Source: Escherichia coli (GTDB lineage: Bacteria; Pseudomonadota; Gammaproteobacteria; Enterobacterales; Enterobacteriaceae). Taken from it: DNA of 213 bases. This document shows positions 1 to 213 of this stretch, piece after piece. The stretch is from assembly GCF_003334815.1 (NCBI RefSeq), contig NZ_QOWO01000143.1; one strand, given 5' to 3'. The translations under genes and the position numbers were made by a program. Position 1 is the stretch's first letter, and every line of letters begins with the position of its first letter. The notes under the pieces were generated by a model that was not told the DNA's origin, searched no databases, and was given only the letters and a program-made list of their open reading frames with translations.

Positions 1-76
1 CTCTCATATAGCCACACTTGTAGACCGAAAATCACGTTATACGATCATCCTTAGACTCAGGGGCAAAGATTCTGTC
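1..76 (+). mobile_element. IS30 internal fragment (IS30 family), truncated by the window at its 5' side and interrupted at 76/77 by another IS
   Basis: Plus-strand frame 2 (codons from position 2) translates to SHIATLVDRKSRYTIILRLRGKDSV, which matches from memory an internal segment of E. coli IS30 transposase InsI (roughly residues 239-263 of about 383). The match stops abruptly at position 76. Confidence 0.85.
2..76 (+). pseudogene. insI: IS30 transposase InsI, interrupted internal CDS fragment (25 codons); the in-frame TGA at 77-79 is supplied by the terminus of the adjacent IS
   Basis: 25 consecutive codons identical to the recalled InsI sequence (...ATLVDRKSRYTIILRLRGKDSV). The native protein continues SVNQALTDKF..., but here the frame reads V-stop followed by unrelated sequence. 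No start codon or N-terminal region is in the window. Confidence 0.8.
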
Positions 77-101
77 TGAACCGCCCCGGGTTTCCTGGAG
101 A
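77..101 (-). repeat. Terminal inverted repeat (IRR) of the IS3-family element, about 25 bp; outer terminus at position 77
   Basis: Sequence TGAACCGCCCCGGGTTTCCTGGAGA directly abuts the point where IS30 homology ends. IS3-family IRs begin with 5'-TG. The inner boundary (about 101) is approximate because the partner IR is not in the window. Confidence 0.7.
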
Positions 102-118
102 GTGTTTTATCTGTGAAC

Positions 119-213
119 TCAGGCTGCCAGATCATTGTTTCCGATGGAAGCATAATAAGCTTTTTCTGCTTCTGCCGGAGGAGTATGGCCCAGCCTTTCC
201 AGCAATCGTCGAT
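119..213 (-). CDS. IS3 family transposase OrfB (integrase-core/rve type), C-terminal 31 codons plus stop; 5'-partial because the gene continues past the window end
   Basis: Minus-strand translation gives ...(N)RRLLERLGHTPPAEAEKAYYASIGNNDLAA with stop TGA at 119-121 (reverse complement). The LG-x-x-P-x-E-x-E motif near the C-terminus is characteristic of IS3-family OrfB proteins, and the tail matches the recalled IS629/IS1203 OrfB C-terminus. Confidence 0.85.
   Translation of the reverse strand, partial: RRLLERLGHTPPAEAEKAYYASIGNNDLAA

Follow-up and report, generated by a model that had tools for sequence, protein, structure and literature searches.

The minus-strand reading frame of 58 codons that crosses the junction of two insertion sequences in the analysed 213-bp stretch of Escherichia coli DNA (in the following, the window) is very probably a non-functional chance frame and not a gene (probability approximately 0.94). 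Of its 58 codons, 46 belong to a +1 frame that is intrinsically open at the 3′ end of IS629, and the junction supplies a tail of 12 codons and the stop. The original prediction had described it as most likely a chance frame to which the junction gave rise. The first part of this description stands, because in 43% of 5,000 dinucleotide-preserving shuffles of the window at least one of the six frames is open for 58 codons or more, whereas an origin at the junction does not apply to 46 of the 58 codons. The properties by which a functional small open reading frame (ORF) would be recognized were openness beyond chance, a ribosome-binding site before the start, conserved boundaries, purifying selection, and membership in a known family or similarity to a solved structure; none of these was found.

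An IS629 right end in an IS30 transposase gene

The window consists of two parts that meet at base 77 (Table 1). The left part matches features annotated as “IS30-like element IS30 family transposase” with 98–100% identity in a Megablast search against 5,426 complete E. coli genomes, and the match lies in the reading frame of the transposase, which identifies it as an IS30 remnant that is cut after approximately codon 269 of 383. The right part of 137 bases corresponds to sequences labelled “insertion sequence: IS3 family IS629” and “IS629 transposase OrfB” in Stx phage records, and contains both the terminal repeat and an orfB 3′ end that match IS629. In the Megablast results the second half of the window falls under annotations as “IS3 family transposase.” The equivalent of the 25 terminal bases is labelled “inverted repeat from right end of IS629” in AP000422.1. 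The C-terminus of orfB reads ...AEAEKAYYASIGNNDLAA before its stop codon, and the coding sequence annotated in RefSeq as “IS3 family transposase, programmed frameshift” terminates at the corresponding position in E. coli 67-1 (L003) and in strain ETEC1749 (L004).

Table 1. Features of the 213-bp window and their positions.
Feature	Position	Strand	Remarks
IS30 transposase gene fragment	1..76	+	open frame from base 2 (SHIATLVDRKSRYTIILRLRGKDSV) up to the junction
GTC, putative left copy of a 3-bp target-site duplication	74..76		by comparison with E. coli 67-1
TGA, bases 1–3 of the IS629 terminal repeat	77..79	+	closes the truncated IS30 frame
IS629-type right end (IS3 family), transposase genes inverted	77..213	-	99.3% identity; element extends past the window
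Right inverted repeat (IRR) of IS629, 25 bp, begins TGAACCGCCCCGGG	77..101		equivalent annotation in AP000422.1
IS629 orfB 3′ end, ...RRLLERLGHTPPAEAEKAYYASIGNNDLAA*	119..213	-	minus frame 2; stop TGA 121-119
Reported open frame, 58 sense codons and TAA	37..213	-	minus frame 0
First in-frame ATG, codon 21	151..153	-	38-aa product; anti-SD -1.5 kcal/mol
Second in-frame ATG, codon 27	133..135	-	32-aa product; anti-SD -3.5 kcal/mol

Translation of plus-strand frame 1 terminates with ...GKDSV* exactly at the junction. Since the IS30 frame is closed by the TGA of IS629 itself, the remnant encodes 269 residues without any residue contributed by IS629, and the truncated IS30 coding sequence in ETEC1749 has a length of 807 nt, which equals 269 codons. 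An identical junction in E. coli 67-1 contains a complete element of 1310 bp with a programmed-frameshift coding sequence and GTC on each flank. This junction arose by simple transposition, in which 3 bp of the target were duplicated and IS30 was cut after codon 269 of 383. By comparison, the GTC preceding the IS629 tip in the window probably is the target duplication made by the IS629 insertion, whose other end lies outside the window. Full copies of 1310 bp, including the left inverted repeat that is the counterpart of the IRR in the window, are present in E. coli 67-1 and in strain E2348/69 (L001).

Within the IS629 terminal repeat, the plus strand can form a terminator-like hairpin (CCGGGTTTCCTGG followed by AGAGTGTTTT, window positions 86–98 plus a T-run to 108), which faces transcription entering IS629 from outside. 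One consensus match of this kind was found on the plus strand, compared with 0.2 expected from shuffled sequences. The hairpin is weaker on the minus strand because a G–T pair turns into an A–C mismatch.

A match of 100% identity to the window was found neither in the 5,426 complete E. coli genomes nor among the PLSDB plasmids. The same junction is intact in the chromosomes of three porcine ETEC strains (ETEC1749, ETEC4085, and rl0044; 98.6% identical) and in E. coli 67-1 (97.7% identical), and a version shortened by 4 bp occurs on the Okinawan bovine plasmid pOkiPb01684_1 (L005). IS629-type elements were observed repeatedly in IS30, in the same orientation at different sites (window 74–79; L001 3279, L002 3144, L003 4040, L004 3077, L005 3073, and L006 1852). 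The site in L006 lies 12 bp further along IS30 and recurs widely among IncF plasmids from E. coli, Salmonella, and Shigella, and in E2348/69 the element lies 202 bp further along and is flanked by an ACT duplication. To the right of IS30, E2348/69 and ETEC1749 agree in their context, but their IS629 copies lie at different positions, and further spacings between IS629 and IS30 were seen among E. coli genomes. The two target copies in ETEC1749 differ (GTT on the left, L004 3074–3076; GTC on the right, 4387–4389), which is a point change that followed the insertion. In pOkiPb01684_1 the 4 bp of IS30 adjoining the IS629 tip are missing (L005 3068–3072) and the other flank is unrelated; an IS-adjacent deletion or a recombination would fit, as described for IS629 with the excision enhancer IEE (PMC9330008).

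IS629 is described as the most abundant insertion sequence in E. coli O157, often responsible for the inactivation of genes (PMC9943667), and further as a cause of deletions and a substrate of IEE (PMC9943667, PMC9330008). A read-out product of IS629 is not described in either publication. The window resembles other junctions of IS629, IS1203, and IS1203v in its terminal repeat and orfB C-terminus, and, at the identical 67-1 junction, in the 1310-bp element and the 3-bp duplication. It differs from IS629 junctions generally in its target, which is another insertion sequence (IS30) and not a chromosomal or prophage gene.

Extent, length, and expression signals of the open frame

Translation of the reverse complement from base 213 reproduced the predicted frame of 58 codons that ends with TAA at 39–37; the peptide IDDCWKGWAILLRQKQKKLIMLPSETMIWQPEFTDKTLSRKPGAVQTESLPLSLRMIV agrees exactly, and both in-frame ATG codons were found at their predicted positions. 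A mechanical ORF list contains the frame from the first of these codons onward (37..153, minus strand, 38 aa). Relative to orfB the frame is shifted by +1, and it coincides with the frame of orfA. Its predicted course through the 3′ region of orfB in a different frame, across the inverted repeat and into IS30 antisense sequence is right as a route, but the boundary had to be corrected to base 77, which is the tip of IS629 (TGAACCGCC...). Codon 46 (CAG, 78–76) straddles the junction, and the IS30 antisense sequence provides the following 12 codons and the stop. That no other junction-crossing frame has a start codon holds for this window.

The length of the frame is at the level expected by chance. 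The longest open run in the shuffled windows had a median of 55 codons. In the window itself, plus-strand frame 0 is open for 53 codons (55–213); between the TAG at 52–54 and the junction it contains no start codon. The expected probability of 12 stop-free codons in the flanking sequence is approximately 0.52. Other non-coding frames of IS629 contain open runs of 70, 71, 89, 93, 120, and 159 codons. In full IS629 copies the reported frame begins at a stop located 7 or 24 codons past the end of the window, and its IS-internal part thus spans 52.7 or 69.7 codons. When the synonymous codons of orfB were permuted with the protein sequence kept and the length of the stop-free tail was scored, 34% of the trials gave a run of 52 codons or more, and 4% gave 69 codons or more (P = 0.04). 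The 69-codon version is therefore somewhat longer than the permutation predicts, which counts against a chance origin, but it is unremarkable because several frames exist and a shorter natural variant occurs.

Signals for expression were assessed on both levels. To score the ribosome-binding potential, the 15 nt upstream of each ATG were paired with the 3′ end of the 16S rRNA. The resulting energies (Table 1) lie in the range of the background over all positions of IS629, which has a median of -2.0 kcal/mol and in which 35% of positions score -3.0 or better, whereas the authentic start codons of orfA in IS629 and of the IS30 transposase gene reach -7.1 and -10.2 kcal/mol, respectively. The assertion that neither ATG has a convincing Shine-Dalgarno sequence was thus borne out. 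A consensus scan for sigma-70-like promoters found none on either strand of the window, and a TATAAC at 41–36 that was noticed by eye has no -35 partner; a hybrid promoter formed at the junction was rejected on these grounds. Nor does the window resemble an IS-generated hybrid gene or an outward-promoter fusion, since no promoter was found in it and the sequence downstream consists of 12 IS30 antisense codons and a TAA. The window has no match in Rfam at E ≤ 1, and a structured RNA was rejected as well. The only terminator-like site in the window is the one on the plus strand; because none was found on the minus strand, transcripts of the IS629 transposase genes probably cross the junction. 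The region of the frame would then form the 3′ tail of the transposase mRNA, which presumably is not translated in this frame.

Two mechanisms by which the frame could be connected to a transposase gene were also considered and rejected. A programmed frameshift from orfB into the reported frame is not compatible with the sole A-run (GAA AAA G, approximately 166–158), which does not form an X XXY YYZ heptamer when read in the orfB frame, and a -1 slip from orfB would lead into minus frame 1, where a stop lies at 134–132. Continuity into orfA across the junction of an IS circle or tandem does not arise either, as 1310 bp plus a 3-bp spacer lead into IS frame 1 and not into the frame of orfA.

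Conservation of the frame and its database matches

A comparison of 13 IS629-type right ends with 75–100% identity, located at 12 different junctions, revealed that the C-terminus of orfB is kept in all of them including the 75%-identical relative, and that the reported frame is free of stops through the terminal repeat in 13 of 13. Its boundaries vary. The distance of the upstream stop to the IS tip is 69.7, 52.7, 49.7, 37.7, or 21.7 codons depending on the lineage, and the number of flank-encoded codons is 0, 0, 0, 2, 4, 4, 9, 12, 18, or at least 49 across the junctions. At the junction located 12 bp away (L006) the frame stops at once (...GAVH*), and at the shortened junction on pOkiPb01684_1 the tail reads NLCP*. 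The tail TESLPLSLRMIV is common only to loci with the identical junction, as must be the case. A lack of conservation of the frame in related junctions had been named in advance as an outcome that would speak against a product, and this is what the boundaries and tails show.

In this small sample of 13 sequences, counted per single site, the overlap with orfB contains 41 distinct variant sites. In orfB 18 of them are synonymous (23 non-synonymous); in the reported frame only 9 are synonymous and 32 non-synonymous, and three of the 41 variants introduce a stop codon. Such counts are to be expected of a +1 frame, in which the wobble positions of orfB fall on second codon positions. The substitutions track orfB and not the reported frame.

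Searches of curated resources gave no match in Pfam, even at E ≤ 10, or in the PDB, and the best score against NCBIfam was 14 bits compared with a cut-off of 85 bits. The exact junction products of 32, 38, and 60 aa are absent from approximately 15 billion predicted proteins. A homology search of the protein collection, in contrast, retrieved 2,451 clusters. Approximately five sixths of the 120 clusters listed are named “hypothetical protein, partial”; the listed clusters have lengths of 55–100 aa and nearly all contain a single member. Their sequences share only the 46 residues derived from IS629 (...IDDCWKGWAILLRQKQKKLIMLPSETMIWQPEFTDKTLSRKPGAVQ/H) and continue with unrelated tails, a few of which happen to continue the reading frame of IS1, IS66, or IS3-family transposase fragments. 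These clusters are automatic gene calls at IS629 ends and contig breaks and not a protein family. The expectation that no family would be hit was correct; an absence of any hit applies to curated families only, as raw collections contain thousands of IS629-derived calls with arbitrary tails. Some database ORFs (P0001–P0003) run from the right tip of IS629 into an internal IS629 fragment (...SRKPGAVQ|KQKKLIMLPSETMIWQ...), a sequence pattern that points to insertions of IS629 into IS629, to partial duplications, or to artefacts of assembly where contigs end.

Two PHROG profiles, phrog_33794 and phrog_31974, match residues 27–47 of the translated frame (MIWQPEFTDKTLSRKPGAVQT) with E-values of 6e-7 and 1e-5, respectively. 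The matches are confined to profile positions 1–21/23, and both profiles begin with MIWQPEFTDKTLSRKPGAVQ(T), which is the peptide read out of IS629 from the ATG at 135–133 (window 77–135, minus strand). IS-derived N-terminal extensions from mis-called starts thus appear to contaminate phage family models. Member records of these profiles were not located among the four Stx-phage loci inspected; three of the four contain chimeric ORFs on the opposite strand that read into IS629, and one contains none.

These opposite-strand ORFs (H0115 of VT2-Sakai, AKI86481.1 of PA18, and gp04 of SH2026Stx1) resemble the reported frame in crossing an IS629 right-end junction and in combining codons of a host gene with IS-derived codons. 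They differ in direction: the phage ORFs enter IS629 on the opposite strand and consist of a real phage gene with an IS-antisense tail of 78 codons, whereas the reported frame exits IS629, with a real gene on neither side. Inward from the IS629 tip, the strand antisense to orfB is open for 78 codons in the frame that is plus-strand frame 0 of the window, and the orfB-antisense frame was seen in three Stx-phage loci (L014 558–2036, L015 132–2036, and L016 858–2036). In the records of H0115, AKI86481.1, and gp04, phage genes cut by IS629 are annotated with such an IS-derived C-terminal tail. A closer likeness exists to spurious alternative-frame ORFs that leave IS ends, which likewise overlap a real gene in its +1 frame, have a chance-level length, no ribosome-binding site and unconserved boundaries, and appear in databases as single-member calls. 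Nothing material distinguishes the reported frame from these, and its version at this junction is absent from protein collections.

Origin of the frame and alternative readings

The frame can be accounted for by a short series of events. An IS629-type element transposed into the IS30 transposase gene after codon 269, in opposite orientation and probably with duplication of GTC. The +1 frame of orfB lacks stops over the last 50–70 codons of the element, the terminal repeat included, and as no +1 stop exists near the right end of IS629, the frame exits into the flank at every insertion. Its end is set by the first in-frame stop of the flanking sequence, which in the window follows after 12 IS30 antisense codons. 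The frame is very probably a non-functional by-product of the sequence constraints acting on orfB and the terminal repeat, extended by a random flank. Any translation would be due to rare, unassisted initiation on read-through transposase mRNA and would yield an unconserved peptide of 32–38 aa that has no function; we infer that no meaningful product is made from the frame.

It is very improbable that IS629 instead carries a real, weakly expressed start at the ATG at 135–133, at which ribosomes that terminate at the nearby orfB stop would perhaps reinitiate, so that every insertion would make a short chimeric peptide or add an N-terminal extension to a gene downstream. This ATG is located 59 nt from the right tip and precedes the orfB stop by 12 nt, a distance that in principle permits termination-reinitiation; in the window, translation from it would yield the 32-aa peptide MIWQPEFTDKTLSRKPGAVQTESLPLSLRMIV. 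Most of the 13 copies compared have the ATG, and all 13 keep the frame open through the terminal repeat; no terminator was found on the minus strand of the window. However, the anti-SD pairing upstream of this codon does not exceed the background, the 75%-identical relative (L012) is altered at both ATG positions (M>T and M>V/R) and open in this frame for only 22 codons, and the substitutions in the reported frame are mostly non-synonymous. In the IS3 family, moreover, the orfB product is reached through a programmed frameshift. The RefSeq note on the coding sequence indicates that OrfB is made only in this way, so few ribosomes would reach the orfB stop. Acceptance by others seems to favour a real start, as gene callers and the two PHROG profiles include ORFs that begin at this ATG and some database entries fuse the peptide in frame to real transposase domains of IS66, IS1, or IS3, but these entries are automatic calls, mostly at contig ends, and not evidence of translation. 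In the window itself the tail consists of 12 IS30 antisense codons, with no downstream gene to which it could be fused. The broader notion that the right end of IS629 acts as a portable low-level start, which adds the 20-residue leader MIWQPEFTDKTLSRKPGAVQ to downstream frames, is more doubtful still. If it were true, chimeric proteins would occasionally be created and expressed, although at this locus only the 32-aa peptide would result.

An effect on the level of RNA has the least to recommend it and is hardly to be expected: the junction would create a hybrid outward promoter or regulatory element, and the frame would mark a functional antisense transcript directed against the IS30 transposase. 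Transcription that leaves IS629 is indeed antisense to the IS30 transposase gene. Right ends of IS3-family elements carry a -35-like element of the circle-junction promoter, as in IS911, IS2, and IS3, and by analogy the IS629 end might contribute one here. The consensus scan found a sigma-70-like site on neither strand of the window, however, and no Rfam family is matched. As the insertion has already disabled the IS30 gene, no function would be left for antisense control to act on, and an RNA role would neither require nor explain an open frame. A non-functional chance frame remains the reading that agrees with length, signals, conservation, and database matches alike.

The biological weight of the locus is little, as it represents a dead IS30 copy with an IS629 insertion, and nested insertion-sequence debris of this kind is common in E. 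coli. Its value lies in annotation. The +1 frame of IS629 gives rise to a differently tailed “hypothetical protein” wherever a gene caller picks up a junction, and annotators who recognize the 46 residues contributed by IS629 (...IDDCWKGWAILLRQKQKKLIMLPSETMIWQPEFTDKTLSRKPGAVQ) can remove such calls.
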